From an uncultured Thermoleophilia bacterium (GTDB taxonomy: Bacteria; Actinomycetota; Thermoleophilia; UBA2241): a stretch of DNA of 64,000 nucleotides. The notes below the pieces were generated by a model, which ran no database searches, was not told where the DNA came from, and worked only from the letters and a program-made list of their open reading frames with translations. This document shows, in pieces, positions 32,888 to 58,869 of the stretch. The DNA lies in assembly GCA_963715985.1 (NCBI GenBank), contig CAVQSP010000011.1:256001-320000 (forward strand), read 5' to 3'. A program made the translations under genes and the position numbers. Within the stretch, counting starts at the first letter, position 1; every line of letters begins with the position of its first letter.

Positions 32888-33310
32888 CTACTCAGACGCC
32901 GCGACGATCGACGCGAGCAGCTCGTGCGGGTCGACCACAGGGACGGTGGCGTTTGCGAAGCCGGCACCGTCGCGGGTGACGATCGCCGCGGCCCCGGCAC
33001 TGCGCGCGGCTTCGTGGAGCACTGCGTCCTCGAAGTCCTCGAACTCGAGGTCGAGCGCCCGGTCGAGCACGTCCCGGTCGACGGGAGCGATCGCGAAGAG
33101 CGCCAGCACTCCGTGGACCTGCCTGTGAGCGCGGGTGCGCCCGAAACTCTTTGCCGCGATGCAGAAGATGGTCGTCACCGTCGTGGCGCAGATCATGCCG
33201 TCGACGCGCTCGTTGTCCACGAGCGCGAACAGCTTCGCGGCGACGCCGACATGAGGCGCTCTGTCCAGGAGTACGTCGAGGACGACGTTGGTGTCGAACA
33301 CCACCTTCAC
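32888..33310 (-). CDS. PIN-domain (VapC-like) toxin
   Basis: VFDTNVVLD, DFEDA, IVTRD. Confidence 0.9.
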   Translation of the reverse strand: MKVVFDTNVVLDVLLDRAPHVGVAAKLFALVDNERVDGMICATTVTTIFCIAAKSFGRTRAHRQVHGVLALFAIAPVDRDVLDRALDLEFEDFEDAVLHEAARSAGAAAIVTRDGAGFANATVPVVDPHELLASIVAASE

Positions 33311-33549
33311 CGGTACTTCTCCTCGAGGTGGCGGCGATAGTCGGCCTCCGTGACCGTGGCCCCCTTCAGGGAGCCGATGAGGTCGCGGACCCGCGGGGTG
33401 ATCTCCGTACCGGGGATCTCCTCATCCGCGTCGATGAGCGCGAAGTAGTCGGCGACGAGTTGCGAGACCGACTTGCCCGACCTGCGGGAGTGGCGCTTGG
33501 CGATGCTGATGAGCCGCTCGTCGAGTCGCAGTGTCAGTTTGACGTTCAC
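33307..33549 (-). CDS. DUF6364-like RHH antitoxin
   Basis: KLTLRLD..AK....GKSVSQLV.DY..HLEEKY; GTGA overlap with the toxin. Confidence 0.85.
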   Translation of the reverse strand: MNVKLTLRLDERLISIAKRHSRRSGKSVSQLVADYFALIDADEEIPGTEITPRVRDLIGSLKGATVTEADYRRHLEEKYR

Positions 33550-45634: not shown

Positions 45635-45667
45635 GTGTGGACGCGTGCACAAGCGGGCCGCTATACT
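45635..45667 (+). promoter_or_regulatory. Rex-like operator overlapping the promoter of the hdrA-metVF operon
   Basis: GTGTGGA-CGCG-TGCACAA over TGGACG-N18-TATACT. Confidence 0.55.
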
Positions 45668-45744
45668 TGCGAGACCCAAGTCAGGGTTCTGACTGTGGTT
45701 GCCAACTTTTCTGTCGGACCTGCCGCGTGTGCAAAGGAGTGCGT

Positions 45745-48700
45745 ATGTCGGGTTCACCACCCAAGTCCACCGGAGCTGCGCTCGTCGTGGGCGGCGGCAT
45801 CGCGGGCATGCAGTGCTCGCTTGACCTCGCCGAAGGGGGGTACAAGGTCTACCTCGTTGAGAGAGCGCCCGCTCTGGGTGGGCACATGGCGCAACTCGAC
45901 AAGACCTTCCCCACGAACGACTGCTCCATGTGCACCATGGCGCCTAAGCTGGTCGAGGCGGGCCGGCATCTCAACATCGAGATGGTGACCAACTCCGAGC
46001 TCATCGGCCTCGAGGGCGAGCCGGGCAACTTCAACGCCAGGGTCTACCACCACGCGCGTTTCGTCGACCCTGACAAGTGCACGAGCTGCGGCGAGTGCTC
46101 ACCCAAGTGCCCGGTGACTGTCCCCAACCAGTACAACGAGGACCTCGACGAGCGCAGGGCGATCTACAAGCTGTACCCGCAGGCCATCCCCAACACCTAC
46201 GCGGTGACCAAGAACGGCCACAGCCCGTGCAAGCGCGCCTGCGCCGTGCACACCAGCGCCCAGGGCTACGTAGCGCTCATCGCCGACGGCCGTTTCGCCG
46301 AGGCGTACACGGTGGCCAGTGAGCCCAACCCCTTCCCCGCCGTCTGCGGCCGCGTCTGCACGCACAAGTGCGAGACCGACTGTACGCGCGGGCAGATAGA
46401 GGCGCCCATCGCCATCGCCGGCCTCAAGCGCTTCATCAGCGACCACGCCTTCGACAACGTGCCGCTGCCCGACAAGGCCGAGGTCACGTTCAAGGAGAAG
46501 GTAGCCGTGGTGGGCGCGGGCCCCAGCGGCCTCACCGCCGCCCGTGACCTAGCGCTGCTCGGCTATGAAGTCACCGTGCTCGAGAGCAAGCCCGAGCCCG
46601 GCGGCATGCTGCGCTTCGGCATCCCCGAATACCGCCTGCCCAAAGCCGCCCTGCAGCAGGACATCGACCGCATCACCGCGCTCGGGGTCGACCTGCAGTG
46701 CAACAAGGCCGCCGGCAAGGACTTCACCATCGACGGCCTCATGAAGAAGGACGGCGGCGGTTACAAGGCCGTCTACCTCGCCGTGGGTCTGCAGGGCGGC
46801 CGCACGCTGCCCATCCCCGGCGCGGACGCCAAAGGCGTGCTCGACGCGGTCAGCCTTCTCAAGGCGGCCACGCTCGGCGAGAAGGTCGACATGGGCAAGA
46901 ACGTCGTCGTCATCGGCGGCGGAGACGTGGCCTTCGACGCCGGCCGCACAGCTCTGCGCCTGGGCGCCGAGAAGGTCACCATCAACTGCATCGAGGACGA
47001 CCAGAGCGTGCCGGCCTCGGACGACGAGCTCACCGAGGGTCTGGACGAGAGCATCGCCTTCAACTGCTCATGCATGCCTTCGCAGATCCTCACCGACGCC
47101 GACGGCCGCGCCAACAAGGTCGAGTTCCTCGCCTGCTCGCTGGGCGCGCCGGACGAGCGCGGCTGGCGCCCGCCGGTGGCCATCACCGGCTCTGAGCACG
47201 AGCTCGCGTGCGACACCGTCATCTTCGCCATCGGCCAGAGCATGGTCGACGACTTCCTCGAGGGGACCAAGGGCATCACCGTCGAGAAGGGCCAGATACT
47301 CACGGACAAGGCCACGCTCGGCACCGGCAAGAAGGGCGTGTTCGCCGGCGGCGACGCCGCGGCGAGCGCCCCGTGGACGGCCATCGAGGCCGTCGCCGCG
47401 GGCCGCCGCGCGGCGCGCAGCATCCACAACTTCCTGCGCGGCGAGGACCTCCTGCCCATCGAGGACGACATGATGGACGAGGCCAAGCCCGAGGACGCCA
47501 TCATGGAGCAGACCGCGGTCATGGCGCGCATGCCCATGCCGCACCTTCCCGGCGCGGCCCGCAAGATCACCTGGGACGAGGTCAATACCGGCTTCTCGCA
47601 GGAGCAGGCCGTGGCCGAGGCCAAGCGCTGCCTGAACTGCGCCGTCTGCTCCGAGTGCATGGAGTGCGTGCGCGCCTGCGGTCCGGGCGCCCTGCTACAC
47701 GGCGAGCGCGACAAGGAACTGGAGTTCGAGGTCGGCGCCGTCGTCATGGCGACCGGCTTCGACCTCTACGACCCCGGCAAGAACAGCGAGTACGGGTACA
47801 GGCGCTACCCCAACATCCTTTCGTCGCTCGAGTACGAGCGCACGCTGAGCGCCAGCGGCCCCACCGTGGGCGAGGTCAAGCGCCCGTCCGACGGCACGCA
47901 CCCCAAGAAGATCGCCTTCATCCAGTGCGTCGGCTCGCGCGACCAGGAGCACGAGTACTGCTCGAGCGTCTGCTGCATGTACGCCAACAAGCAGGCCATG
48001 CTCACCATCGACCACGAGCCCGACTGCGAGCCCACCGTCTTCCTCATGGACATGCGCGCCCAGGGCAAGGGCTTCGACGCCTTCTACCAGCGCGCCCTGG
48101 ACAAGGGCGTCAAGTTCGTGCGCTCGCGCCCGTCGTACATCAAGGAGGACCCGCTCAGCGACGACCTCCTCATCAGCTGGGAGGACGAAGCCGGCAAGCT
48201 CCACGAGACGCGCTACGATATGGTGGTGCTCTCTGCCGGCCTCGAGCCTGCGCGCAAGGCGCAGGAGGCGGCCGGCCACTTGGGCGTGGCTCTCAACCGC
48301 CACGGCTTCTGCCAGCTGCACGAGTTCAACCCCATGCAGACCAGCCGCGAGGGCGTCTTCGTGGTGGGCCCGTTCGGCGAGCCCAAGGACATCCCCGACA
48401 GCGTGGCGCAGGCCTCGGCCGCCGCGGCCCAGGTCATGACGGGCCTCGCCGACTCGCGAGGTACGCTCACCGTGGACAAGGAGTACCCGGCCGAGCGCAA
48501 CGTCGTGGGCGAGGAGCCGCGGGTGGGCGTCTTCGTCTGCCACTGCGGCAGCAACATCGCCGGCGTGATCGGCGTGGAGAGCGTGGCCGAGTACGCCATG
48601 CAGCTGCCCGGCGTGGAGTACGCCACCGACACCATGTACACGTGCTCCAGCGACAGCCTGGGGCTCATCCGCGAGAAGATCGCGGAGCACAACCTCAACC

Positions 48701-50190
48701 GGGTCGTGGTCGCGAGCTGCACGCCGCGCACGCACGAGCCCATCTTCCAGGACACCCTCCGCGAGGCCGGGCTCAACCCGTTCCTCTTTGAGATGGCCAA
48801 CATCCGCGACCAGGCGAGCTGGGTGCACGCCAAGGAGCCGGAGAAGGCCACGCAGAAGGCCAAGGAACTGGTACAGATGAGCGTGGCCCGCGCCCGGCTC
48901 CTCGAGCCGCTCTTCAAGGTCGACGTGCCGCTCACACACTCCGCCGTGGTCATCGGCGGCGGCGTGGCCGGCATGACCAGCGCCCTCGCCCTCGGCGACA
49001 TGGGCCACGAAGTGCACCTCGTGGAGCGCACCGGCAAGCTCGGCGGCTACGTCCTCGAGCTCGGCAAGACCATCAAGGGCAACGACCCCGCCGAGCTCGT
49101 CAAGGAGCTCGAGCAGCGCCTCGTGGACAACCCCAACGTCAAGATCCACCTCGACGCCGAGCTCGCCGACTTCCACGGTTTCATCGGCAACTTCTCCAGC
49201 ACCATCGCGGAGAAGGACGGCAAGCGCACGGCCGTGGACCACGGCGTCGTCATCGTCGCCACGGGCGCCAAGGAGGAAAGGCCGGAACTGTACGGCCTGG
49301 GCTCCGGCCAGAAGGTCATCACCGGCATGGACCTCGAGCACATGCTCAAGGAGGACGACCCGGCCCTCGCCGACATCAAGTCGGTGGGCTTCATCCTCTG
49401 TGCCGGTTCACTGGACGAGAACAAGCCCTACTGCTCGCGCACCTGCTGCCAGCAGAGCATCAAGAACGCCATCGCGCTCAAGGAGAAGGACCCCAGGCGC
49501 CCCGTGTACGTCTGGTTCAAGGAGATCCGCACCTTCGGCCTCCTCGAGGAGTACTACACCAAGGCGCGCGAGCTGGGCGTCATCTTCACGCGCTACGACA
49601 ACGACACGCTCCCCGACGTGAGCGCCAACGGCAGCGTCAGGATCAAGGCGCGCGACCCGTACCTGGGCCGCGACGTCGACATGCCGCTGGACTGTCTCGT
49701 GCTGGCCACGCCCACGATCCCGTCCGAGGGCGGCTCCGAGCTCAGCAAGATGCTCAAGGTGCCGCTCACCGCCGACGGGTTCTACCTCGAGGCGCACGTC
49801 AAGCTGCGCCCGGTGGACTTCGCCTCCGAGGGCATCTTCCTCTGCGGCTCGGCCCACTACCCCAAGAGCATCGAAGAGACGATCAACCAGGCCTACGCCG
49901 CGGCCGGTCGTGCCGCCGCCATCCTCGCCAAGCCGGTCATCAAGGCGGGCGGCGTGGTGGCCGAGGTCGACCAGGAGAAGTGCGCGGCCTGCCTCACCTG
50001 CGTGCGCGTCTGCCCCTACGAGGTGCCGATCATCGACCCCGTCGAGAAGAAGGCCCTTATCGAGGCGGCCGCCTGCCAGGGCTGCGGCATCTGCGTGAGC
50101 GAGTGCCCGGTGAAGGCCATCACCCTGCACCACTACACCGACGCGCAGATCTTCGCCAAGGAAGAGGCGCTCTTCATGGAGGTGAGCTGA
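45745..50190 (+). CDS. hdrA: Large HdrA (HdrL-type) with an inserted GltD/NfnB-like NAD(P)H module, 1481 aa
   Basis: GGGIAG, LDKTFPTNDC; insert with CGRVC..C, GAGPSG, GGGDVA; QCVGSRD..YCSSVCC, CHCGSNI, ANIRDQ; second GGGVAG/YCSRTCC; terminal 2x[4Fe-4S]; AAGGAG RBS. Confidence 0.93.
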   Translation: MSGSPPKSTGAALVVGGGIAGMQCSLDLAEGGYKVYLVERAPALGGHMAQLDKTFPTNDCSMCTMAPKLVEAGRHLNIEMVTNSELIGLEGEPGNFNARVYHHARFVDPDKCTSCGECSPKCPVTVPNQYNEDLDERRAIYKLYPQAIPNTYAVTKNGHSPCKRACAVHTSAQGYVALIADGRFAEAYTVASEPNPFPAVCGRVCTHKCETDCTRGQIEAPIAIAGLKRFISDHAFDNVPLPDKAEVTFKEKVAVVGAGPSGLTAARDLALLGYEVTVLESKPEPGGMLRFGIPEYRLPKAALQQDIDRITALGVDLQCNKAAGKDFTIDGLMKKDGGGYKAVYLAVGLQGGRTLPIPGADAKGVLDAVSLLKAATLGEKVDMGKNVVVIGGGDVAFDAGRTALRLGAEKVTINCIEDDQSVPASDDELTEGLDESIAFNCSCMPSQILTDADGRANKVEFLACSLGAPDERGWRPPVAITGSEHELACDTVIFAIGQSMVDDFLEGTKGITVEKGQILTDKATLGTGKKGVFAGGDAAASAPWTAIEAVAAGRRAARSIHNFLRGEDLLPIEDDMMDEAKPEDAIMEQTAVMARMPMPHLPGAARKITWDEVNTGFSQEQAVAEAKRCLNCAVCSECMECVRACGPGALLHGERDKELEFEVGAVVMATGFDLYDPGKNSEYGYRRYPNILSSLEYERTLSASGPTVGEVKRPSDGTHPKKIAFIQCVGSRDQEHEYCSSVCCMYANKQAMLTIDHEPDCEPTVFLMDMRAQGKGFDAFYQRALDKGVKFVRSRPSYIKEDPLSDDLLISWEDEAGKLHETRYDMVVLSAGLEPARKAQEAAGHLGVALNRHGFCQLHEFNPMQTSREGVFVVGPFGEPKDIPDSVAQASAAAAQVMTGLADSRGTLTVDKEYPAERNVVGEEPRVGVFVCHCGSNIAGVIGVESVAEYAMQLPGVEYATDTMYTCSSDSLGLIREKIAEHNLNRVVVASCTPRTHEPIFQDTLREAGLNPFLFEMANIRDQASWVHAKEPEKATQKAKELVQMSVARARLLEPLFKVDVPLTHSAVVIGGGVAGMTSALALGDMGHEVHLVERTGKLGGYVLELGKTIKGNDPAELVKELEQRLVDNPNVKIHLDAELADFHGFIGNFSSTIAEKDGKRTAVDHGVVIVATGAKEERPELYGLGSGQKVITGMDLEHMLKEDDPALADIKSVGFILCAGSLDENKPYCSRTCCQQSIKNAIALKEKDPRRPVYVWFKEIRTFGLLEEYYTKARELGVIFTRYDNDTLPDVSANGSVRIKARDPYLGRDVDMPLDCLVLATPTIPSEGGSELSKMLKVPLTADGFYLEAHVKLRPVDFASEGIFLCGSAHYPKSIEETINQAYAAAGRAAAILAKPVIKAGGVVAEVDQEKCAACLTCVRVCPYEVPIIDPVEKKALIEAAACQGCGICVSECPVKAITLHHYTDAQIFAKEEALFMEVS

Positions 50191-50191
50191 G

Positions 50192-50773
50192 ATGGCCGAG
50201 GCTGAAGCCACCGCCGTCGAGACGCCCGTGGACGAGGTCCCCAGGAAGCCCGTGGACCCGGACTTCGAGCCCGAGATCATCGTGTTCGCGTGCCACTACT
50301 GCGCATACGCCGCGGCCGACCTGGCCGGCAGCATGCGCCTGCAATACCCGTCGAACATCCGCATGATCAAGCTGCCCTGCACGGGCAAGCTCGAGGTCAT
50401 CCACCTGCTCAAGGCCGTCGAGGCCGGCGCGGACGGCGTGTACGCCGCCGGCTGCCTCGAGGGTGAGTGCCACTACCTCAAGGGCAACCTGTGGGCGCGC
50501 AAGCGCATCACCCACGTGAAAGACCTGCTCAGCGAGCTCGGCATCGAGCCGGAGCGCGTGGAGATGTACAACATGTCGTCGGCCGAGGGCGCCAAGTTCG
50601 CGGCCGCGGCCACCGAGTTCACCGAGCGCATCAAGCAGCTCGGCCCCAGCCCCATCCGCCGTCACGGCGTGGACGCGCACGCCGCCGCGCGCGAAGCGCT
50701 CGGCGGCGTGGCCATGCCTGATGAACCCCATCCGTCTGCCGCGGCAACCGTCGAGGAAGGACACGCAGAATGA
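50192..50773 (+). CDS. mvhD: MvhD/FlpD [2Fe-2S] subunit
   Basis: FACHYCAYAAADLAG, PCTGK, GADGV...GC..GECHY..GN. Confidence 0.93.
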   Translation: MAEAEATAVETPVDEVPRKPVDPDFEPEIIVFACHYCAYAAADLAGSMRLQYPSNIRMIKLPCTGKLEVIHLLKAVEAGADGVYAAGCLEGECHYLKGNLWARKRITHVKDLLSELGIEPERVEMYNMSSAEGAKFAAAATEFTERIKQLGPSPIRRHGVDAHAAAREALGGVAMPDEPHPSAAATVEEGHAE

Positions 50774-51453
50774 TCACCGCCGAACGCAAACCCTTCGACG
50801 AGATCGTCGGACTCGTCGGCGACAAGAAGAAGGTCCTCGTCGCCGGCTGCGACACGTGCGTCGCGATCTGCCTCACGGGTGGCGAGAAGGAGGCCGAGAT
50901 CCTGGCCAGCGAGCTGCGCATCAAGGCTGAGCAGGACGGCCGCGACGTCGCCATCGAGCACACCGCCGCCATCCGCCAGTGCGAGTGGGAGTACCTCGAC
51001 ATGATCGCCGCCAAGGTGGACGAGGCCGACATCGTGCTCAGCATGGCCTGCGGCATCGGCATCCAGAGCATGGCCGAGAAGTTCGCGCCCAAGCTCATCG
51101 TGCCGGCCGTCAACACCAACATGCTGGGCATGCCGCAGGAGCACGCCGTATGGCTCGAGCGCTGCGGCGCCTGCGGCGACTGCGTCATCGGCGAGACCGC
51201 CGGCATCTGCCCGGTGGTGCGCTGCAGCAAGAGCCTCATGAACGGCCCGTGCGGCGGCTCGCACGACGGCAAGTGCGAGGTCACGACGCCGGAGAAAGAA
51301 GAGCTCGACTGCGCCTGGGCGCTCATCTGGGACCGCCTCAAGGCGCAGGGTCGCGAAGAGATGATGTACGTCAACCGGCCGCCGAAGAACTGGAGCAAGA
51401 GCAGCTCCGGCGGCCCACGGAAGATGGTGCGTGAGGAGGCGAAGCCGGTATGA
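50770..51453 (+). CDS. metV: Methylene-THF reductase small subunit MetV
   Basis: GCDTC..C.TGG, RQCE, ACGIG, CGACGDC, CPVVRCSKSLMNGPCGG, CAW. Confidence 0.92.
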   Translation: MITAERKPFDEIVGLVGDKKKVLVAGCDTCVAICLTGGEKEAEILASELRIKAEQDGRDVAIEHTAAIRQCEWEYLDMIAAKVDEADIVLSMACGIGIQSMAEKFAPKLIVPAVNTNMLGMPQEHAVWLERCGACGDCVIGETAGICPVVRCSKSLMNGPCGGSHDGKCEVTTPEKEELDCAWALIWDRLKAQGREEMMYVNRPPKNWSKSSSGGPRKMVREEAKPV

Positions 51454-52394
51454 CCGCCACCGAGTACAAGGCTGGCAGCAACCTCGAGAAGGTCCTGAGC
51501 GCGGGCAAGTTCGCGGTCACCGGCGAGTGCGGCCCGCCGAAGAGCGCCGACGTGAGCGTCATCGAGGAGAAGGCCAAGATCCTCAAGGGCTACGTGGACG
51601 CCGTCAACATCACCGACAACCAGACCGCCGTGGTGCGCGTGTGCTCCATGGCCTCCGGCTACACTGCCCAGCAGAACGGCCTCGAGGCCATCATGCAGAT
51701 GACCTGCCGCGACCGGAACCGCCTGGCGATGCAGGCCGACATCCTCGGCGCCTACACCCTGGGCATCAAGAACATCCTCTGCCTCACCGGCGACCACATG
51801 AGCTTCGGCAACCACACTGAGGCCAAGGGCGTCCACGACCTCGACTCGCTCAACCTCATCAAGATGTACAAGGACATGCGCGACGAGAAGAAGTTCCAGT
51901 GCGGCGAGGAGATGCCGGTGGCTCCCGAGCTCTACATCGGCTGCGCCGAGAACCCCTTCGCCGACCCCTTCGAGTTCCGCGCCCTGCGCCTGCAGAAGAA
52001 GATCCAGGCCGGCGCCGACTTCATCCAGACCCAGTGCATCTTCAACGTCCCCAAGTTCAAGAAGTGGATGGAAGAGGTCCGTGCTCTCGGTCTGCACAAG
52101 GAGATCAAGATCCTCGCCGGCATCACGCCGCTCAAGGGCGTCGGCGGCGCCCGCTACATGCAGAACTTCGTCCCCGGCATCGACGTGCCCCAGGAGATCG
52201 TCGACCGTATGGCCGCCTGCGAGAAGGGCGCCCCGTCGCAGGCCGAGGGCAAGAAGATCGCCGTCGAGATGATCAAGGAGTTCGCCGAGATCGAGGGCGT
52301 GGCCGGCGTGCACATCATGGCCATCGAGTGGGAGATCGCCGTGCCCGAGATCGTGGAGGCCGCCGGCCTCATGCCGCGGCCCGCGGTAGCGTAG
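51450..52394 (+). CDS. metF: Methylene-THF reductase MetF
   Basis: NITDN, TCRDRNR, LTGDH, KKIQAGADFIQTQ, GVHIM. Confidence 0.94.
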   Translation: MTATEYKAGSNLEKVLSAGKFAVTGECGPPKSADVSVIEEKAKILKGYVDAVNITDNQTAVVRVCSMASGYTAQQNGLEAIMQMTCRDRNRLAMQADILGAYTLGIKNILCLTGDHMSFGNHTEAKGVHDLDSLNLIKMYKDMRDEKKFQCGEEMPVAPELYIGCAENPFADPFEFRALRLQKKIQAGADFIQTQCIFNVPKFKKWMEEVRALGLHKEIKILAGITPLKGVGGARYMQNFVPGIDVPQEIVDRMAACEKGAPSQAEGKKIAVEMIKEFAEIEGVAGVHIMAIEWEIAVPEIVEAAGLMPRPAVA

Positions 52395-52404
52395 GAGGTC
52401 TGGA

Positions 52405-52986
52405 ATGACCACCTGCACAGTGAGCCCGCTCCTGGCCGAGAACATCGGCACAGGCTGCGGAGAGAACGCCTTCAAGTGCTACCAGTGCAAGCGCTGCACC
52501 AGCGGCTGCCCGGTGGCGCGCTACTCCGACATGCACCCGGCGATGATCATGCGCGCCGTGCAGCTCGGCCAGCTGGACATGGTGTTCGACGACCGTTTCA
52601 TCTGGCTGTGCACCGGCTGCGAGACCTGCACCACGCGCTGCCCGCAGGGCATCGACATCGCCGCCGTCATGGACGAGCTGAAGATCATCGCCCGGCGTGA
52701 CGGCCGCATCCCGGACGGCACGCCGTCCGCGCAGATGCTCAAACTGAACTACGACTCGTTCGTGCGCTGGGGTCGCATGTGGGAGGTCGAGCTGATCACC
52801 CGCGACGTGCTCAAGCGGCCGAGCAGCGCCAAGAACTGGTTCACGCTCGGCCCCAAGATGATGCTCAAGGGCAAGATCAACCCCACGCTCAAGCGCGGCG
52901 ACACGCTGGCCATGAAGCGCATGGTCCAGACCGCCGACAGCATCACCAAGGCGAAGATGCGGCGGCAGAAGGAGGGTCTGTCATGA
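52405..52986 (+). CDS. hdrC: HdrC 2x[4Fe-4S] subunit
   Basis: CYQCKRCTSGCP, IWLCTGCETCTTRCP. Confidence 0.92.
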   Translation: MTTCTVSPLLAENIGTGCGENAFKCYQCKRCTSGCPVARYSDMHPAMIMRAVQLGQLDMVFDDRFIWLCTGCETCTTRCPQGIDIAAVMDELKIIARRDGRIPDGTPSAQMLKLNYDSFVRWGRMWEVELITRDVLKRPSSAKNWFTLGPKMMLKGKINPTLKRGDTLAMKRMVQTADSITKAKMRRQKEGLS

Positions 52987-53849
52987 GCGCGACCCTCGCC
53001 TACTACCCCGGCTGCTCGCTGCACGGCACGTCCGGCGAGTTCGACGCCAGCTTCAAGGCCACGGCCAGGGCGCTGGGCCTCACCCTGCTCGAGATCCCCG
53101 GCTGGGAGTGCTGCGGCAACACGGCGGCGCACTCCATCAACCGCCTGCTCTCCACGGCCCTGCCGGTCAACGAGCTGGCCAAGGTGGAGCAGGACATGAA
53201 GCTCGACGCCGTGGCCGTGCCCTGCGCGGCCTGCTACAGCCGCTTCAAGACCGGCGCCCACGAGGTGGCCGAGGACGCGGAGACGGCGGCCGACGTGCGT
53301 GCCGTGGTCGGCCGCCCGTACAACGGCGGGGTCGAGGTCCACAACCTCATCGACGTCTACCACGACGCCGTGGGCCTCGACGCCCTGGAGTCCAGGGTCA
53401 CGCGCCCGTTCCGCGGCCTCAAGGTGGCCTGCTACTACGGCTGCCTGCTCACCAGGCCGCCCAAGGTCACCCTGGCCGACGACCCCGAGTACCCCATGCA
53501 CATGGACGAGGTCGTCAAGGCGCTGGGCTGCGAGCCGGTGCAGTGGAACTACAAGACCGACTGCTGCGGCGCCGCGCTGGCGCTCACCGAGCAGGGCATC
53601 GTCGACGACCTCGTCGGTCGCATCCTCAATGACGCGCGCGCCTGCGGCGCGGAAGCCGTTGCCGTGGCCTGCCCGCTCTGCCAGGTCAACCTCGACGGCC
53701 GCCAGGTCGAGATCACCAAGAAGCAGGGCGACTGGCGCAGCGTGCCGGTCATCTTCCTCAGCCAGCTGGTGGGCCGCGCGATCGGCATCGACGACAAGAC
53801 GCTGGGCTTGAGCAAGCACCTCGTCGACATCGCCGCCGTGATGGCGTAA
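52983..53849 (+). CDS. hdrB: HdrB (CCG domains)
   Basis: YYPGCSL, WECCG, CAACY, YYGC, CCGA, CPLCQVNLD. Confidence 0.93.
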   Translation: MSATLAYYPGCSLHGTSGEFDASFKATARALGLTLLEIPGWECCGNTAAHSINRLLSTALPVNELAKVEQDMKLDAVAVPCAACYSRFKTGAHEVAEDAETAADVRAVVGRPYNGGVEVHNLIDVYHDAVGLDALESRVTRPFRGLKVACYYGCLLTRPPKVTLADDPEYPMHMDEVVKALGCEPVQWNYKTDCCGAALALTEQGIVDDLVGRILNDARACGAEAVAVACPLCQVNLDGRQVEITKKQGDWRSVPVIFLSQLVGRAIGIDDKTLGLSKHLVDIAAVMA

Positions 53850-53874
53850 GCGGCGCGGCGAGAACGAAGCCCAC

Positions 53875-53910
53875 AGAGGGGCGGCGGGCCGGAAGGCCCG
53901 CCGCCCCTCT
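53875..53910 (+). terminator. Hairpin terminator after hdrB
   Basis: AGAGGGGCGGCGGGCC-GGAA-GGCCCGCCGCCCCTCT followed by a pyrimidine-rich tail. Confidence 0.7.
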
Positions 53911-54009
53911 ACGTCTTTCTGGAGGCGCGACCGCCCGCCCCAGCCTCTCGGCAAGCTTGCCGCGACGCGGTAGAGTGCGGGAGTAAGAGTGCGCGAAGAG
54001 GGAGCTACC

Positions 54010-54645
54010 ATGACTGAGGTCGTGCAGCCGGGGGCCGGGGGCCGCGTGCTCCTGGTGTACGCGACGCGGCACGGGTCCACGCGGGAGGTCGCCGAGGCGG
54101 TCGCCGAGGAGCTGCGTGCGGCCGGCGCCGAGGTGGAGTTGTGCGAGGCCTCGTCGGCGCCGGCGCCCGGCGGCTACGACGCGGTCGTGGTCGGCGCCCC
54201 GATGATCATGGGCTGGCATCGCGACGCCGAGAAATACGTCAAACGGCATCGCCAGGCACTGGCTCAAGTGCCGACGGCCTTCTTCGTGATGGCAGCGTCG
54301 CTCACCGACACCGGCGAGGGCGACGTGCGTGGCGTGCCCATCGTCAAGGACCCGTGGCTCGCCAAGAAGCCGCGCGAGGCCGGCAAGCTGCGCCGCAAGG
54401 AGCGCTACGCGCTGCCGGCGCACTACCTGGGCGACATCCTCGATGCCTGCGCCCCGGCGTGGCCGCGCACGGTGGCCTTCTTCGCGGGATCGCTCGACCT
54501 CACGACCATGAACGTCCTGGAGAAGCTCTTCGTGCTCCTCGTCATCGGCGCCACGCCCGGCGACGGGCGCAACTTCAAGGCCGTGCGCGAGTGGGCCGCC
54601 GAGCTGCCGGAGCGGCTGCGCCCGCCGGCCCCTCCGTCCGCCTGA
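54010..54645 (+). CDS. Flavodoxin-domain protein (HemG-like)
   Basis: VYATRHGSTREVA, YDAVVVGAP, FFAG.LD, D.RNF..VREWA. Confidence 0.85.
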   Translation: MTEVVQPGAGGRVLLVYATRHGSTREVAEAVAEELRAAGAEVELCEASSAPAPGGYDAVVVGAPMIMGWHRDAEKYVKRHRQALAQVPTAFFVMAASLTDTGEGDVRGVPIVKDPWLAKKPREAGKLRRKERYALPAHYLGDILDACAPAWPRTVAFFAGSLDLTTMNVLEKLFVLLVIGATPGDGRNFKAVREWAAELPERLRPPAPPSA

Positions 54646-54804
54646 CCGCCACGCAGCACGGCGGACCACGGCTGCCACGGCGGCGCAGATACTGTCCAGC
54701 GTACCGCACTCGGCGCGCTGCCTGGCGGCACGCGGACGCGACGCCTCATATGATGCCCGCAGCGCTTCTGCACACTCACGCTACCGAGAGGAGAGGGTCG
54801 GTCG

Positions 54805-55464
54805 ATGAGCACCGTTGACGAACTCGTCAAGGCGGTCCAAGAGGGCAACGCCCCCCAGGCCGCCGACCTTGCCGCACGCGCGCTCGAGGAGGGCGCCGAC
54901 GCCGCCGGGCTGGTGGACTCGCTGTCCGCCGCCATGCGCGCCGTGGGCGACCGCTTCGGCACCGGCGAGATCTTTCTGCCGGAGCTGATGCTGGCGGCAC
55001 GCGCCATGCAGAAGGCCATGGACGTGCTGCAGCCCGCGCTGCTGGCGTCCGCCACCGCCAAGGGCAATCTGGGCGTCATCGTCCTCGGCACCGTGAAGGG
55101 CGACGTCCACGAGATCGGCAAGGACATCGCCATCACCATGCTTCGCGCCACCGGCTTCGAGGTGTACGACCTCGGCCGCGACGTGGACCCGCTGGACTTC
55201 GTCAAGCGCGCCGAGGAGCTGCACGCCGACATCATCGGCGCCTCCGCTCTGATGACCACCACCATGCCGGCTCAGCGGGAGCTCGTGGACATCCTCGTGG
55301 CCAAGGGCCTGCGCGACAAGTATCACGTGATCCTGGGAGGTGCCCCCGTGACGGCCGAGTGGGTGGCCGAGACGGGCGCCGACAGCTGGGGCGAGGACGC
55401 CGCCAAGGCGGCCAAAACGCTCGAGGAGTTCATGGCCGGCAAACGCGCGGGCGCGGGAGAGTGA
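54805..55464 (+). CDS. Methyltransferase cognate corrinoid protein (MtmC/MttC-like)
   Basis: VGDRF..GEIFLPEL, GTVKGDVHEIGK (DxHxxG), SALMTTT, GGAP. Confidence 0.93.
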   Translation: MSTVDELVKAVQEGNAPQAADLAARALEEGADAAGLVDSLSAAMRAVGDRFGTGEIFLPELMLAARAMQKAMDVLQPALLASATAKGNLGVIVLGTVKGDVHEIGKDIAITMLRATGFEVYDLGRDVDPLDFVKRAEELHADIIGASALMTTTMPAQRELVDILVAKGLRDKYHVILGGAPVTAEWVAETGADSWGEDAAKAAKTLEEFMAGKRAGAGE

Positions 55465-55468
55465 CGGC

Positions 55469-56848
55469 ATGTCGCACCTGAAGATGTGGGAGATCATGGA
55501 GCGGGCCGCCGAGGGCCCGTACTGCGAGGACGACGAGTTCCTCTACGACGTCTTCCTGCCGACGATGCAGGACGTGCTGCAGAAGTACGAGATCAAGTTC
55601 GACCCGGCCACGCCGGTGCCCGCCGACGACGACCTCGCCGACCGCGTGTGGAAGGCGGCAGTGGAGCTCTTCCTCAAGGTCGGCGTGCACAACGTGGACA
55701 CGCACCGCCGCATCCTCATCACCGAGGACGAGCTCAACGAGGCGCTCTTCCTGGCGCCGCAGGTGCACCAGGTCGGCGCCGGTCACGAGACGCGCTGGTG
55801 GATGCCGCGCAAGATCGAGGACCCGCGCGGCCCGTTCTGCATCTTCAGCCCGGACATCACGTACGACGAGGACATCTTCCTGCAGGCCTCCATGGCCTAC
55901 GTGCAGGAGCCGCTCGCCGACGGCGTCTGCGGCCCTATCCTCGAGGAGTCCATCGGCCGCACCATCCACTCGGGCACGCCCACCGAGATGGCCGGCGTCA
56001 TGGAGCACGCCATGCTCCTGCGCAACGCCGCCAAGCTCGTCGGCCGCCCGGGCCTCTTCCTCGTGGCTGTGGGCACGGCGCAGTCGGACGTCGGCCAGGT
56101 GGCCGTGAGCAACAACGAGTGGGGCGTGCGCAGCAGCGACGGGCGTCTCATCGGCGTGCTCACCGAGATGAAGACCGACAACGAGCTGCTCAACAAGGTG
56201 GCGCACTGCAAGCAGTTCGGCTGCGCCATCGGCTGCCTCACCGGCGCGATCTACGGCGGCTACGCCGGCGGCGCCGAGGGCACGGCGGTGCTCGAGGTGG
56301 CACACCACCTCGTGGGCCTCACCGTGTACCAGCACAACTTCAACAACAGCTTCCCGTTCCACATGCAGCACACGTCCAACAGCGGCCGCGAGATGCTGTG
56401 GCTGGTGAGCATGGTGCACCAGGCGCTGGCCCGCAACAGCCGCATCCTCAGCACGAGCAACGGCTTCTTCAACGCCGGCCCCGGCACGGAGATGATCTTC
56501 CGCGAGGCCGCCGCGCACGCCATCGCCAGCGTGGTGAGCGGCGGCGACCTGTGGACGGCGGCGCCGCGCCACAACAAATACCGCAACTACGCCACGCCGC
56601 TGGAGGCGCGCCTCGCCTGCGAGGCCGGCCACGCCGTGGCGCTGCAGGGCATGACCCGCGAAAAGGCCTGTGAGGTCGTCGACACGCTCCTCAAGAAGTA
56701 CGAGGGCGAGATCGCCACGGCCCCCGAGGGCAAGCCCTTCCAGGAGTGCTACGAGGTCATGAAGGTCAAGCCGCAGGGCTGGTACCTGGACATGTACAAG
56801 GCCGCCAGGGAGGAGCTCGCGGGACTGGGCGTCGAGTTCCCGTATTGA
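55469..56848 (+). CDS. mtmB: MtmB-family corrinoid methyltransferase without pyrrolysine
   Basis: P.DDDLADR, GRPG, E.K.D, GGYAGG.EG, AGPGTEM, EAR, P.GK.FQECY; no in-frame TAG. Confidence 0.88.
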   Translation: MSHLKMWEIMERAAEGPYCEDDEFLYDVFLPTMQDVLQKYEIKFDPATPVPADDDLADRVWKAAVELFLKVGVHNVDTHRRILITEDELNEALFLAPQVHQVGAGHETRWWMPRKIEDPRGPFCIFSPDITYDEDIFLQASMAYVQEPLADGVCGPILEESIGRTIHSGTPTEMAGVMEHAMLLRNAAKLVGRPGLFLVAVGTAQSDVGQVAVSNNEWGVRSSDGRLIGVLTEMKTDNELLNKVAHCKQFGCAIGCLTGAIYGGYAGGAEGTAVLEVAHHLVGLTVYQHNFNNSFPFHMQHTSNSGREMLWLVSMVHQALARNSRILSTSNGFFNAGPGTEMIFREAAAHAIASVVSGGDLWTAAPRHNKYRNYATPLEARLACEAGHAVALQGMTREKACEVVDTLLKKYEGEIATAPEGKPFQECYEVMKVKPQGWYLDMYKAAREELAGLGVEFPY

Positions 56849-56883
56849 GAGACTGAAGCGGTCCGACGCCGCGAGCCGCGCAG

Positions 56884-57144
56884 ACGCGAGAGGGGCGCCC
56901 GGTCGGCGCCCCTCTCGCGTGCCGGGCGACGAGTCCCAAAGCCGAAGGCTTGTCGCCTCCAAACGCATGATCGCGAAGGCGATTTCAAGCAAGAGCACGT
57001 TCGGACGTGCGTCTGCTTGAAACCGCCGATCGGATGGTCGGGGCCGGCGGCGCGAGGCAGCGGCGGGCCGGTGGCGCGAGGCAGCGGCGGGCCGGCGGCA
57101 CCTGCAGGTCGCAAGAGGGGCGCCCCATGGGCGCCCCTCTTGCG
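56884..57144. repeat. Structured intergenic block: two related palindromes flanking a long hairpin and a 24-bp tandem repeat
   Basis: Palindromes at 56884-56920 and 57110-57144; hairpin at 56983-57022; GGGCCGGYGGCGCGAGGCAGCGGC x2.5 at 57041-57100. Confidence 0.75.
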
Positions 57145-57216
57145 TCTCGTCATCAGCCGGCCTTCACGGCCCGGCCGGGCTTCCCGGCTGCGCGCCGTCA
57201 CGCGGCGCGAGTGGCG

Positions 57217-57465
57217 TCAGCTCCCGTCTTCCTGCTCGGCCAGCACTTCCGCGTAGACGCGGTCCAGGCCTCGCTCCAGGATCTTGCGGCGCCACACCAC
57301 AGCTCAGCGGCAGACCTGCCCGTCGCTGTGGTTGGGGAAGCACACCTCCCGTTCGGCCGGCGTCATCGCCGCGACACGGGCCGCGAACGCGGCGCCGTCC
57401 TCCGGCGCCTCCTGCAGACCGGCCGGCCGATCGGCGCCGCCCTCACCATGTCGTGCGTCCTGCAT
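57217..57465 (-). CDS. Putative novel small selenoprotein with a CxU motif, 82 aa
   Basis: AGGAG-N9-ATG; ..EVCFPNHSDGQVCR[TGA 57304-57306]AVVWRRKILERGLDRVYAEVLAEQEDGS*; codon usage stays coding-like after the TGA. Confidence 0.62.
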
Positions 57466-57485
57466 GCGTCACGTCTCCTGATCGC

Positions 57486-57914
57486 TCACGGGAGCGGGTC
57501 CTGGTCCCACTCCGACGGTGTGTAGGCGCACCCCGGCTCGCCGCCCACGGCGAGGAGCGCGGTGCCGGGCGCTGTGGCCACCGCGCCGCGCCGGCTCTTG
57601 GGGTCGCGCACGTAGACGAAGGTCCCGGCCGGGGCGTCGAACTCCTCGCCGTCCACCTTGAAGCGGGCGCTGCCCGTCACCACGAGGTAGAGCTCCTCGT
57701 GGCGCGTGCCCGACTCGGGGTCCTCGGTGTGGTCCTCGGTGAGCACGTCACCGGCCTTGGGAGCGCGGAAGAGGTTGGTGCCGAACGAGCCGATGCCGAA
57801 GAAGCGGCGCAGCGGCTTCCACTCCGTCTCCGGGGCCCACTCGTACGGGATCGTGGGGATGTCGTCGATGCTCGCGGCCGTGTACTTCGCCGCGCCCTGC
57901 CGCTCGTCGCTCAT
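57486..57914 (-). CDS. Cupin-domain protein
   Basis: H.E....HEELYLVVTG.A.F.VDGE; GAGGAGG RBS. Confidence 0.85.
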   Translation of the reverse strand: MSDERQGAAKYTAASIDDIPTIPYEWAPETEWKPLRRFFGIGSFGTNLFRAPKAGDVLTEDHTEDPESGTRHEELYLVVTGSARFKVDGEEFDAPAGTFVYVRDPKSRRGAVATAPGTALLAVGGEPGCAYTPSEWDQDPLP

Positions 57915-57965
57915 GCCGGGCCCTCCTCAGCTCGCCTTGCTGCAGCTTACCCGCGCCTGCGGCGC

Positions 57966-58703
57966 TCAATCGGCAGCCGGCATGCACCCGCAGCCGCAGG
58001 CCTCGCAGCCCACAGGGTTCGGCGCGGTCTCGGGCGCCGGCTCCGTGTCGCCGAGCTCCCAGAAGATCTCCTCGCCCAGCACCTGCCCGGGCTCCACGAC
58101 GATGAACTCGTCGTCGTGCGGCCCGCGGATGAGCTTCTCGAGCAGCCGCAGCGAGCCGTCGAGCTGGATGACGGGCAGGCTGTAGAACTCCGAGACGGTC
58201 TCCACGTACTCGTGCGCCTTGTCGAGGTCGTAGGTGCCGGTGTCGATGACGGCCACGCGCGTGTACGACTCCATGATCATGTGCGCGACCATGCGGGCCT
58301 TCTCCTCACCCATGCGCGGGATCATCTTGAGGTACTCGCGGTACGGGTCCTCGAGCTCCTCGATCCAGCCGCGGGTGTAGTAGTACGTGCCGGGGTGCTC
58401 GCCAAACTCACGCAGGTAGGCGCGCCGGGAGCCCAGGAGGATGGCGATGCAGTCGTCGCAGGCGGGCAGGATCAACCGGTGCGAGCCCGCCACCAGCTCA
58501 GCCGTACCGTTGGAGCAGCGGCCGTAGCCGAGCAGGATGGTGCAGTCGTCCGGGGTGGCGGCGATCGCCTCGTTGATCTTCGCGCGGAGCACGTCCGGAG
58601 TGTCGTGCAGGAAGCCCTCGAGGTACTCCACCGGGATGTCCCCGCGGAGCGCCTCGACCTCGTCGCGGATGGTGCTGCAGGCGATGATCTTGTAGTCGGC
58701 CAT
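57966..58703 (-). CDS. DUF1638 family protein with Cys-rich tail
   Basis: IIAC, LHDTP, LGYGRCSNG, DDCIAILLGS, GTYYYTRGW; tail CEACGCGC; promoter CTGACA-N17-TACAAT. Confidence 0.85.
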   Translation of the reverse strand: MADYKIIACSTIRDEVEALRGDIPVEYLEGFLHDTPDVLRAKINEAIAATPDDCTILLGYGRCSNGTAELVAGSHRLILPACDDCIAILLGSRRAYLREFGEHPGTYYYTRGWIEELEDPYREYLKMIPRMGEEKARMVAHMIMESYTRVAVIDTGTYDLDKAHEYVETVSEFYSLPVIQLDGSLRLLEKLIRGPHDDEFIVVEPGQVLGEEIFWELGDTEPAPETAPNPVGCEACGCGCMPAAD

Positions 58704-58869
58704 GGGAAGTGATGCCTTTCGGTCGGGCACAGGTCACTGAGGCCCATTGTAGGCTTCCGCGCGGGGAATGTCAGGTCGTTTCCGTCCTGATTAGGCGGCG
58801 TTGCGGCTACGCCGACCGGCCGGCGGGGTCGGGCCCAGCCGGCGCATCAAGCCCCGCGCCGTACGTAGC

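Follow-up and report, generated by a model that had tools for sequence, protein, structure and literature searches.

Does a stretch of DNA that brings together a methylene-tetrahydrofolate (methylene-THF) reductase operon, a corrinoid protein beside a putative methyltransferase, and a small selenoprotein encode one pathway or several? The question is raised by a window of 64,000 nucleotides (nt), C11:256001-320000 of a metagenome-assembled genome (MAG); "the window" is the whole stretch of DNA that was analysed. Genes were called by GC3 bias (G+C at third codon positions) and the calls were then scanned against Pfam. All eleven genes named in an initial annotation, made from the letters of the DNA, were found in their places. 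The stretch is probably the junction of three separately inherited units that serve corrinoid- and folate-dependent methyl metabolism in methylotrophic, Wood-Ljungdahl-type Thermoleophilia; this judgement extends to the roles proposed for the units below.

The first unit is an operon of six genes, followed by a hairpin and a flavodoxin-like gene:
45638..45667, plus strand: sigma-70-like promoter match upstream of hdrL (9/12 matches, a consensus match only)
45742..50190, plus strand: hdrL, 1482-residue HdrA-type flavoprotein with a Fer4_20/Pyr_redox_2 insert (Pfam)
50192..50773, plus strand: mvhD, FlpD family (PF02662, 167 bits)
50770..51453, plus strand: metV (PF12225, 110.9 bits)
51450..52394, plus strand: metF, methylene-THF reductase (PF02219, 149 bits)
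52405..52986, plus strand: hdrC-like 4Fe-4S dicluster subunit (Pfam Fer4_8/17; TIGR03290 at 70.6 bits, below cut-off)
52983..53849, plus strand: hdrB-like subunit with two CCG domains (PF02754 in two stretches; TIGR03288 at 157.6 bits, below cut-off)
53875..53910, plus strand: terminator-like hairpin 3' of hdrB (16 pairs, 14 of them G-C, with a T-rich tail)
53989..54645, plus strand: flavodoxin-like gene (Flavodoxin_5, with weak likeness to HemG; Pfam, NCBIfam)

Neighbours among the six share 4 nt or are spaced by 1-10 nt. For instance, mvhD starts 2 nt after the hdrL stop, and metV and metF adjoin with a 4-nt overlap. The ATG of hdrL lies at 45742, 3 nt 5' of the position 45745 from which the initial annotation had counted. 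HdrL scores 978 bits against the NCBIfam model HdrA2, under its cut-off of 1100, and 516.2 bits against NF009410, whose cut-off is 516. In the Protein Data Bank (PDB) it matches HdrA 5ODC in four stretches (E 2e-194), and its residues 160-642 match chains of the NfnA/NfnI/StnC type. The Pfam domains Fer4_20 and Pyr_redox_2 fall at residues 160-554. This insert has the sequence features of an NfnB/GltD-like NAD(P)H module. The gene contains no in-frame TGA.

By the families it encodes, the operon is a methylene-THF reductase of the MetFV-HdrCBA-MvhD type, the complex that acts as methylene-THF reductase in Moorella thermoacetica (Mock et al. 2014, cited after the summary of PMC5861303). Searches with tblastn found one copy each of metV and metF in the genome and no second copy of either. 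Among the 54 genomes searched for the genus, MetV was detected in 45, and the high-quality genomes have it without exception (21 of 21). The full order from hdrL to hdrB recurs in seven relatives (G006, G020, G056, G050, G021, G053 and G064), and part of it in G063. Since it is the only methylene-THF reductase found in the genome and is near-universal in the genus, the operon is the housekeeping reductase of this lineage and not a substrate-specific add-on. Paralogues of hdrL, the flavodoxin gene and the cupin gene on contig C10 were considered as a second locus and rejected, as they are scattered among unrelated genes.

The flavodoxin-like gene adjoins hdrB, or lies within the locus, in nine of ten related genomes examined; it was not found at the tenth locus (G050). 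Because of this position, its product is a candidate low-potential carrier for the reductase. The complex of HdrL with MetVF would then couple NAD(P)H, the methylene-THF/methyl-THF pair and a low-potential carrier, a part that the flavodoxin-like protein may play. During growth on methyl donors the reductase would run towards methylene-THF.

The second unit follows on the same strand and consists of two genes:
54805..55464, plus strand: corrinoid protein of the MtmC/MtbC/MtgC type, B12-binding_2 plus B12-binding (PF02607 + PF02310)
55469..56848, plus strand: pyrrolysine-free MtmB homologue, a candidate substrate:corrinoid methyltransferase (MT1) (PF05369, 310 bits)

The two genes are separated by a gap of 4 nt. 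The corrinoid protein scores 204.5 bits against TIGR02370, where the cut-off is 215.3, and contains the sequence D-V-H-E-I-G, which we take to be the DxHxxG His-on motif. The MtmB homologue, at 310 bits against a cut-off of 25, covers model positions 2-449 of 450 with no in-frame stop, and aligns end to end with Methanosarcina barkeri MtmB (1L2Q, E 2e-56). The pyrrolysine (Pyl) position of 1L2Q, written X there, is aligned to a valine, and the gene has no TAG. Because of this valine, "non-Pyl MtmB", the name first given to the gene, is correct. Unlike it, the two TAG-type mtmB genes of the same genome do have the Pyl codon. The window protein shares 31% identity with the TAG-type MtmB of the same genome and 29-35% with the other full-length pyrrolysine-free paralogues there.

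Orthologues of the MtmB-like protein, at 85-92% identity, occur in 13 genomes or contigs. The corrinoid gene is directly 5' of the MtmB-like gene in all 11 loci for which upstream DNA is available. The pair stands beside the hdr genes in five of the 13 (the source genome, G006, G020, G056 and L048), and in the remaining eight (L047, L049-L053, L057, L058) it has unrelated surroundings. These include an EamA transporter, a MarR regulator, ABC exporters and a nitroreductase, as well as purine genes, PEPCK, an ABC importer of the polar-amino-acid type and urocanase. In G064, the pair lies about 1.6 Mb from that genome's hdr locus. Because the flanks differ while the two-gene order is kept, the pair is a portable (mobile) two-gene MT1 cassette.

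Some neighbours of the pair can be recorded on their own account. In L050 and L051, a gene for a nitroreductase-family flavoprotein comes directly after it, a place taken by other genes in the source genome, where a nitroreductase gene precedes pylB (L001:5149-5811). In L047, urocanase (hutU, L047:1054-2796) is directly upstream of the pair.

In the proposed scheme, the second unit would move a methyl group from its substrate onto Co(I) of the corrinoid protein. Methyl groups from many such MT1/corrinoid pairs, this one included, would be passed to tetrahydrofolate (THF) by a methyl-THF methyltransferase (MT2) encoded elsewhere, and reductive reactivation would be supplied by RACo, likewise encoded elsewhere. 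As a portable pair from an abundant wetland lineage of Thermoleophilia, the cassette is a candidate for a new methyl donor. The function of pyrrolysine-free MtmB homologues first became known in 2026. The first and only characterised one, MtqB, removes methyl groups from tetramethylammonium and choline together with a corrinoid protein of its own (PMC13044021).

A genome-wide inventory agrees with such a scheme. The initial annotation had found no MT2 or RACo in the window. It was right, because no match to URO-D, pterin-binding or RACo families lies inside C11:256001-320000; all are outside it, and the two copies of a RACo_C_ter domain protein are at C11:149598 and C7:11066. About 150 kb upstream of the locus, on the same contig, is an acs cluster (C11:143-152 kb) with CdhC (AcsB/CdhC), two subunits of the CdhD type, RACo and a pterin-binding, AcsE-like gene. 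The formyl-THF synthetase gene fhs (FTHFS) adjoins folD on contig C13. Candidates for MT2 are the pterin-binding protein and seven matches to the URO-D family elsewhere in the genome. Together with many methyltransferases, these genes support the methylotrophic or Wood-Ljungdahl reading that had been put forward from the window.

The methyltransferase repertoire is unusually large for a genome of 4.35 Mb. The MttB family gives 89 matches, several with one in-frame TAG, and the MtmB family gives eight, among them two genes with an in-frame TAG and five pyrrolysine-free paralogues (one split). There are 19 corrinoid-protein paralogues by tblastn. In an EF-Tu-like match the "one TAG" is an ordinary stop, in an MTTB match the "one TGA" is an upstream stop, and both were set aside. 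The genome contains tRNA-Pyl, genes like pylB, pylC and pylD, and a PylS-like synthetase. At C13:551-560 kb (L001), tRNA-Pyl, with a CTA anticodon, is directly 3' of the pylB-, pylC- and pylD-like genes, and the gene for the PylS-like class II synthetase is 4 kb from it. These C13 genes are a complete pyrrolysine system in an actinobacterium of 70% G+C. A literature search found no relevant work linking Thermoleophilia with pyrrolysine.

The third unit is an operon on the opposite strand, and two hairpins lie in the region between it and the second unit:
56890..56914, no strand assigned: G+C-rich palindromic hairpin between the convergent operons (genome hairpin search)
57115..57139, no strand assigned: second G+C-rich palindromic hairpin between the convergent operons (genome hairpin search)
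57219..57465, minus strand: small selenoprotein gene of 82 codons, V-C-R-U-A-V-V-W-R, with the selenocysteine (Sec) codon TGA at 57306-57304
57486..57914, minus strand: cupin-fold protein of 142 residues (Cupin_2, E 2e-4, below cut-off)
57966..58703, minus strand: DUF1638 protein, with an alternative 5' end at 58730 (PF07796, 141 bits, cut-off 27)
58746..58774, minus strand: sigma-70-like promoter match upstream of DUF1638 (10/12 matches, a consensus match only)

The small selenoprotein is called CxU here, after its Cys-x-Sec motif. The genes for DUF1638, the cupin and CxU are adjacent in eight genomes, where they converge on the end of the hdr operon or its flavodoxin gene, with or without the corrinoid/MtmB-like pair in between. 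The operon is therefore conserved independently of that pair. A second kind of setting is found in G015 and G018, in which the cupin and CxU genes are inside clusters of Pyl-type mtmB, mtbB and mttB, and in G011, in which they are beside a TAG-type mttB. Homologues with cysteine in place of Sec occur in metagenome contigs. Three of them (L081, L082, L085) are beside DUF1638 and a flavodoxin gene, without a cupin, and another four (L083, L084, L086, L087) adjoin a DUF1847 gene in four of four loci. In two of the latter (L083, L087) there is a corrinoid gene within 3 kb. No literature mentioning DUF1847 was found. The third unit is associated with corrinoid systems.

It might be thought that the three units, standing so close together, form one dedicated, co-regulated pathway from donor to corrinoid to methyl-THF to methylene-THF, in which the flavodoxin, DUF1638 and the selenoprotein are a private reactivation system replacing RACo. 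The initial annotation had described a compact module of this kind. All parts are within 13 kb in the source genome and in G006, G020 and G056, and every family fits methyl-group metabolism. Nevertheless, a single module is unlikely. The corrinoid/MtmB-like pair keeps company with hdr in only 5 of 13 carriers and is away from it in 8; the hdr operon, the only such reductase found, is near-universal in the genus; and the third unit is conserved by itself. A terminator-like hairpin parts hdrB from the downstream genes, the window lacks an MT2, and two RACo genes exist elsewhere in the genome. Three separate units brought side by side account for these observations.

The selenoprotein gene is missed by gene callers. 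An AGGAG lies 8 nt 5' of its ATG, and the open reading frame (ORF) begins 20 nt after the cupin stop. Homologues are present in 12 of the 54 genomes of the genus, each with exactly one in-frame TGA. All 12 have it at one alignment column, within the motif VC-x-U-AV-x-WR, down to 41% identity; the extended motif reads (H)SDGxVC-x-U-AVxWRxxxLxRGL. A comparison of G000 with G006 shows mostly synonymous changes around and after the TGA, along with one in-frame indel of 3 nt. Codon-position entropies in 11 sequences are 0.68/0.58/0.89 after the TGA and 0.69/0.41/0.95 before it, so that the third position stays the most variable past the TGA. In L068, no ATG, GTG or TTG stands ahead of the conserved stretch that follows the TGA.

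Homologues beyond the genus give a similar picture. A profile search of 1.84 billion representative sequences gave 24 hits. Eighteen are full-length with cysteine at the Sec position (C-R-C), and the same AVxWRRxxLxRGL stretch continues after it. Five database entries (P0007, P0013, P0019, P0024, P0025) end exactly before the TGA, and the remaining one is a repeat protein and probably spurious. A profile search of 400 other Actinomycetota genomes, with 13 candidates per genome scored, gave no hits. Contigs from three DNA runs bridge the gene, with no difference at 57304-57306 among the matches listed. One further run, guessed to be RNA, had 0.06 of the sampled words; its contigs probably come from relatives, since they are mostly 90-95% alike. 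The machinery looked for, namely tRNA-Sec, SelA (442 bits) and SelB (299 bits, above cut-off), is all present in the genome.

Because the TGA column is fixed, a coding signal runs past it, and homologues have cysteine there, the ORF reads as a real selenoprotein gene of a conserved Sec/Cys family, as the initial annotation had proposed. The protein was previously undescribed, and it travels with helper genes of B12 enzymes. Neither Pfam nor NCBIfam has a model for the family, whose members are called "hypothetical" where they are named.

A cupin orthologue is beside the CxU gene in 11 of the 12 genomes with CxU, in ten at 79% identity or more and in G018 as a split copy at 71-72%. His62, His72 and Glu73/74 are invariant in the alignment. 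By sequence, only an uncharacterised cupin and DddQ were matched in the PDB, at E 0.16-0.29.

DUF1638 is 245 residues long from the ATG used in database gene calls, and its residues C9, H33, C63, D83, D84 and C85 are invariant. A sequence search of the PDB gave nothing at E <= 1. The AlphaFold2 model has a pLDDT of 92.2 and a pTM of 0.87 (predicted local and global accuracy). The source genome has four DUF1638 genes, three of them within 4 kb of a corrinoid gene. In another part of the contig, C11:8000-16000 (L091), an operon contains a CCG-domain protein, an alpha/beta hydrolase, two genes of the URO-D type (MT2-like), a corrinoid protein and a short DUF1638; it connects HdrB-like CCG domains with corrinoid proteins and DUF1638 a second time. 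Genetic evidence from Phaeobacter indicates that its split methionine synthase needs DUF1638 plus a RamA-like protein (PMC5764234), and DUF1638 is induced on N-osmolytes in Ruegeria (PMC12478193). None of the papers listed for DUF1638 deals with selenoproteins.

Co-folding of the window's corrinoid protein with DUF1638 gave a score of 0.40 (0.40, 0.40 and 0.41 in separate runs), and the best of three controls gave 0.00. At least 88% of contacts are shared between runs, with a partner pLDDT of at least 81. The mark applied is passed by 51 of 78 solved complexes and by 2 of 108 mismatched pairs; passes at or below 0.60 comprise 5 of the 78 solved complexes and all 4 mismatches that passed. The prediction weakly supports a contact between the two proteins.

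These observations suggest a part for the third unit in corrinoid upkeep. It may keep corrinoid proteins in a working redox state, or otherwise handle them, with DUF1638 docking on the corrinoid protein and the cupin/selenoprotein pair providing a thiol-selenol redox site or a metal site. The flavodoxin, DUF1638 and selenoprotein might in this way provide corrinoid reactivation, as had been suggested at first. DUF1638 is genetically required for some B12 enzymes, and the company that it keeps here, a cupin and a Sec/Cys mini-protein conserved with it, suggests chemistry of a redox or metal kind. CxU itself occurs in 12 of 54 genomes of the genus and MetV in 45; CxU is therefore an accessory, neither a core reductase subunit nor a substrate on which the enzyme depends.

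Several points weigh against the three-unit reading and its proposed roles. With canonical RACo encoded in the genome, there is no need for a second reactivation route, and most relatives run the reductase and corrinoid systems without CxU, as the counts just given show. The chemistry of DUF1638 is unreadable from its fold because no informative structural relative was found: a Foldseek search of the PDB with the model gave none at E <= 0.001, and the best match by VIA-align, 8uoo_A (Z 6.6, root-mean-square deviation 3.5, 119 aligned residues), is in the noise range. The Pfam match of the cupin is under the curated cut-off, and a co-folding score of 0.40 is in a weak range in which, by the calibration of the tool, results are mostly wrong unless a strong prior backs them. 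No consensus hairpin of the selenocysteine insertion sequence (SECIS) type was found, the single-sequence fold having z = 0.86 and RNAalifold giving -4.5 kcal/mol; folds of this region differ from sequence to sequence, with hairpins specific to subgroups, for instance an 8-bp stem that starts 14 nt after the UGA in L068-L070. Finally, the source MAG has a completeness of 88.8% and a contamination of 7.3%, and the synteny comes from one genus of MAGs and a few short metagenome contigs, so that the relatives are not independent.

The third unit could have a different purpose. The cupin and CxU might be a pair that handles a metal or a small molecule, such as a reactive product, and is tied to methylamine (MtmB-type) metabolism and not to corrinoid upkeep. 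CxU is found in five of the six sampled genomes with a TAG-type mtmB (the six being G000, G006, G015, G018, G019 and G020) as against 2 of 19 others. Genes of the MtmB family adjoin the pair in G000, G006, G020 and G056 and are no more than about 5 kb from it in G015 and G018, and the invariant His and Glu residues of the cupin would suit such a role. Yet in G050, G064, G021 and G063 the trio adjoins hdr and the 16-20 kb examined contain no MtmB gene, the Cys forms in L081, L082 and L085 do without a cupin, and the counts come from close relatives and are not independent. On balance, this alternative to corrinoid upkeep seems improbable.

A bolder extension of corrinoid upkeep is that the 65-110-residue proteins with the HSDGxVC-x-[U/C] motif constitute a novel kind of redox shuttle serving corrinoid enzymes, working with DUF1638 and the flavodoxin. 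They would be thiol-selenol carriers through which electrons from Hdr or flavodoxin re-reduce or protect the Co(II) corrinoid. If this were so, a folate reductase would be linked directly to corrinoid reactivation, without the ATP-dependent RACo or alongside it. Such a shuttle is doubtful at present. In one form of the idea, the small protein may be the missing disulfide-type partner of bacterial HdrB.

That last thought can also be taken as an explanation in its own right, in which the CCG subunit HdrB would have CxU as its physiological substrate, one of disulfide type (a selenenylsulfide). Disulfides are reduced by CCG domains of the HdrB type, and an HdrD-like enzyme is known to act on a protein, DsrC. 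In eight genomes the CxU operon faces hdrB or the flavodoxin gene in convergent orientation, in G050 directly with nothing between, and the Cys forms L081 and L082 face that flavodoxin gene in the same way. A substrate role would also fill a gap, as PMC5861303 gives the second acceptor of the Moorella complex as "?". Against this, the 45 genomes with MetV outnumber the 12 with CxU, the cupin and CxU genes of G015, G018 and G011 belong to clusters of methylamine methyltransferase genes whose 20-kb loci contain no hdr gene, and the Cys forms L083, L084, L086 and L087 are beside DUF1847 and not hdr. Such a substrate role is very unlikely, and an accessory of corrinoid systems remains the preferred view of CxU.

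That the TGA is an ordinary stop, leaving a 53-residue peptide or non-coding DNA conserved downstream through an RNA or DNA function, would fit the want of a convincing SECIS (in single, RNAalifold and per-sequence folds) and the five public gene calls that stop there, but is extremely improbable given the fixed TGA column, the 18 Cys homologues with the same continuation, the third-position bias and in-frame indel past the TGA, the conserved stretch of L068 that precedes any start codon, and the Sec machinery of the genome.

Some further features of the window may be described briefly. The hairpin after hdrB is one of the genome's 12 GAGGGGCG..CGCCCCTC hairpins. With it, three of the 12 hairpins of the form GAGGGGCG...CGCCCCTC (53876-53909, 56890-56914 and 57115-57139) are at the ends of the locus' three transcription units. 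The convergent intergenic region contains a tandem 24-nt repeat at about 57040-57100, and one wetland metagenome contig is without one repeat unit, 24 nt being missing at 57049. An Rfam scan of the whole window at gathering thresholds gave 0 matches, and therefore no cobalamin riboswitch or known SECIS family was detected. The upstream flank is unrelated (amidohydrolase, LacI-type regulator, solute-binding protein, aminotransferase, oxoprolinase), as is the downstream flank, with IPT/TIG proteins. A PIN_3 domain gene at 32888-33549 on the minus strand, with a DUF6364 gene before it, is likely part of a toxin-antitoxin pair. The source MAG has 70% G+C over its 4.35 Mb. Its host is an actinobacterium of class Thermoleophilia from a wetland; the first guess of a probable actinobacterium was borne out, the closest relatives' loci being from uncultured Thermoleophilia or Actinomycetota MAGs.

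How do the parts of this locus compare with known systems? Small redox selenoproteins with a Cys-x(n)-Sec motif and Cys-containing homologues are a general class. CxU resembles them in having a cysteine two residues before Sec, Cys homologues elsewhere, and a small size. It differs in having no thioredoxin-like domain; a variable N-terminus precedes a conserved core of about 26 residues, HSDGxVCx[U/C]AVxWRxxxLxRGL.

DUF1638 can be compared with its relatives in the split methionine synthase system of Phaeobacter inhibens (PMC5764234) and the glycine betaine demethylation system of Ruegeria pomeroyi (PMC12478193). The family is the same and is likewise near corrinoid proteins, and homologues of RACo/RamA are also in the genome studied here. 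In contrast to those systems, DUF1638 is here in one operon with a cupin and a selenoprotein, converging on the operon of a methylene-THF reductase.

The second unit is most like MtqB/MtqC of Methanococcoides methylutens Q3c, in which a member of the MtmB family without pyrrolysine is also beside its own corrinoid protein (PMC13044021). The host here is bacterial, however, and the methyl acceptor is probably THF and not coenzyme M. This comparison covers family and gene context.

A counterpart to the large subunit of the first unit is HdrL of Desulfobacterium autotrophicum HRM2. According to PMC2702500, this is also a large fusion of HdrA and glutamate-synthase type, with a predicted NAD(P)H site and mvhD directly next to it. 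Those copies are beside dsr or fdh genes, and two contain Sec, whereas the copy described here has no in-frame TGA and is inside a metVF operon.

The closest known relative of the whole reductase is the Moorella complex. No literature joining Moth_1194 and HdrA was found. Both systems unite the MetF, MetV, HdrA-type flavoprotein, HdrB, HdrC and MvhD families in one operon, and both belong to Wood-Ljungdahl hosts, as acs, fhs and folD attest here. The version in Thermoleophilia, described here from its genes, has the order hdrL-mvhD-metVF-hdrCB, usually with a flavodoxin-like gene after hdrB. Its large subunit is 1482 residues long with an NfnB/GltD-like insert, the comparison with Moorella being one of gene families and gene order. 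A version of the reductase that has a built-in NAD(P)H module and a conserved adjoining flavodoxin-like gene makes the missing second redox partner of the Moorella type testable.

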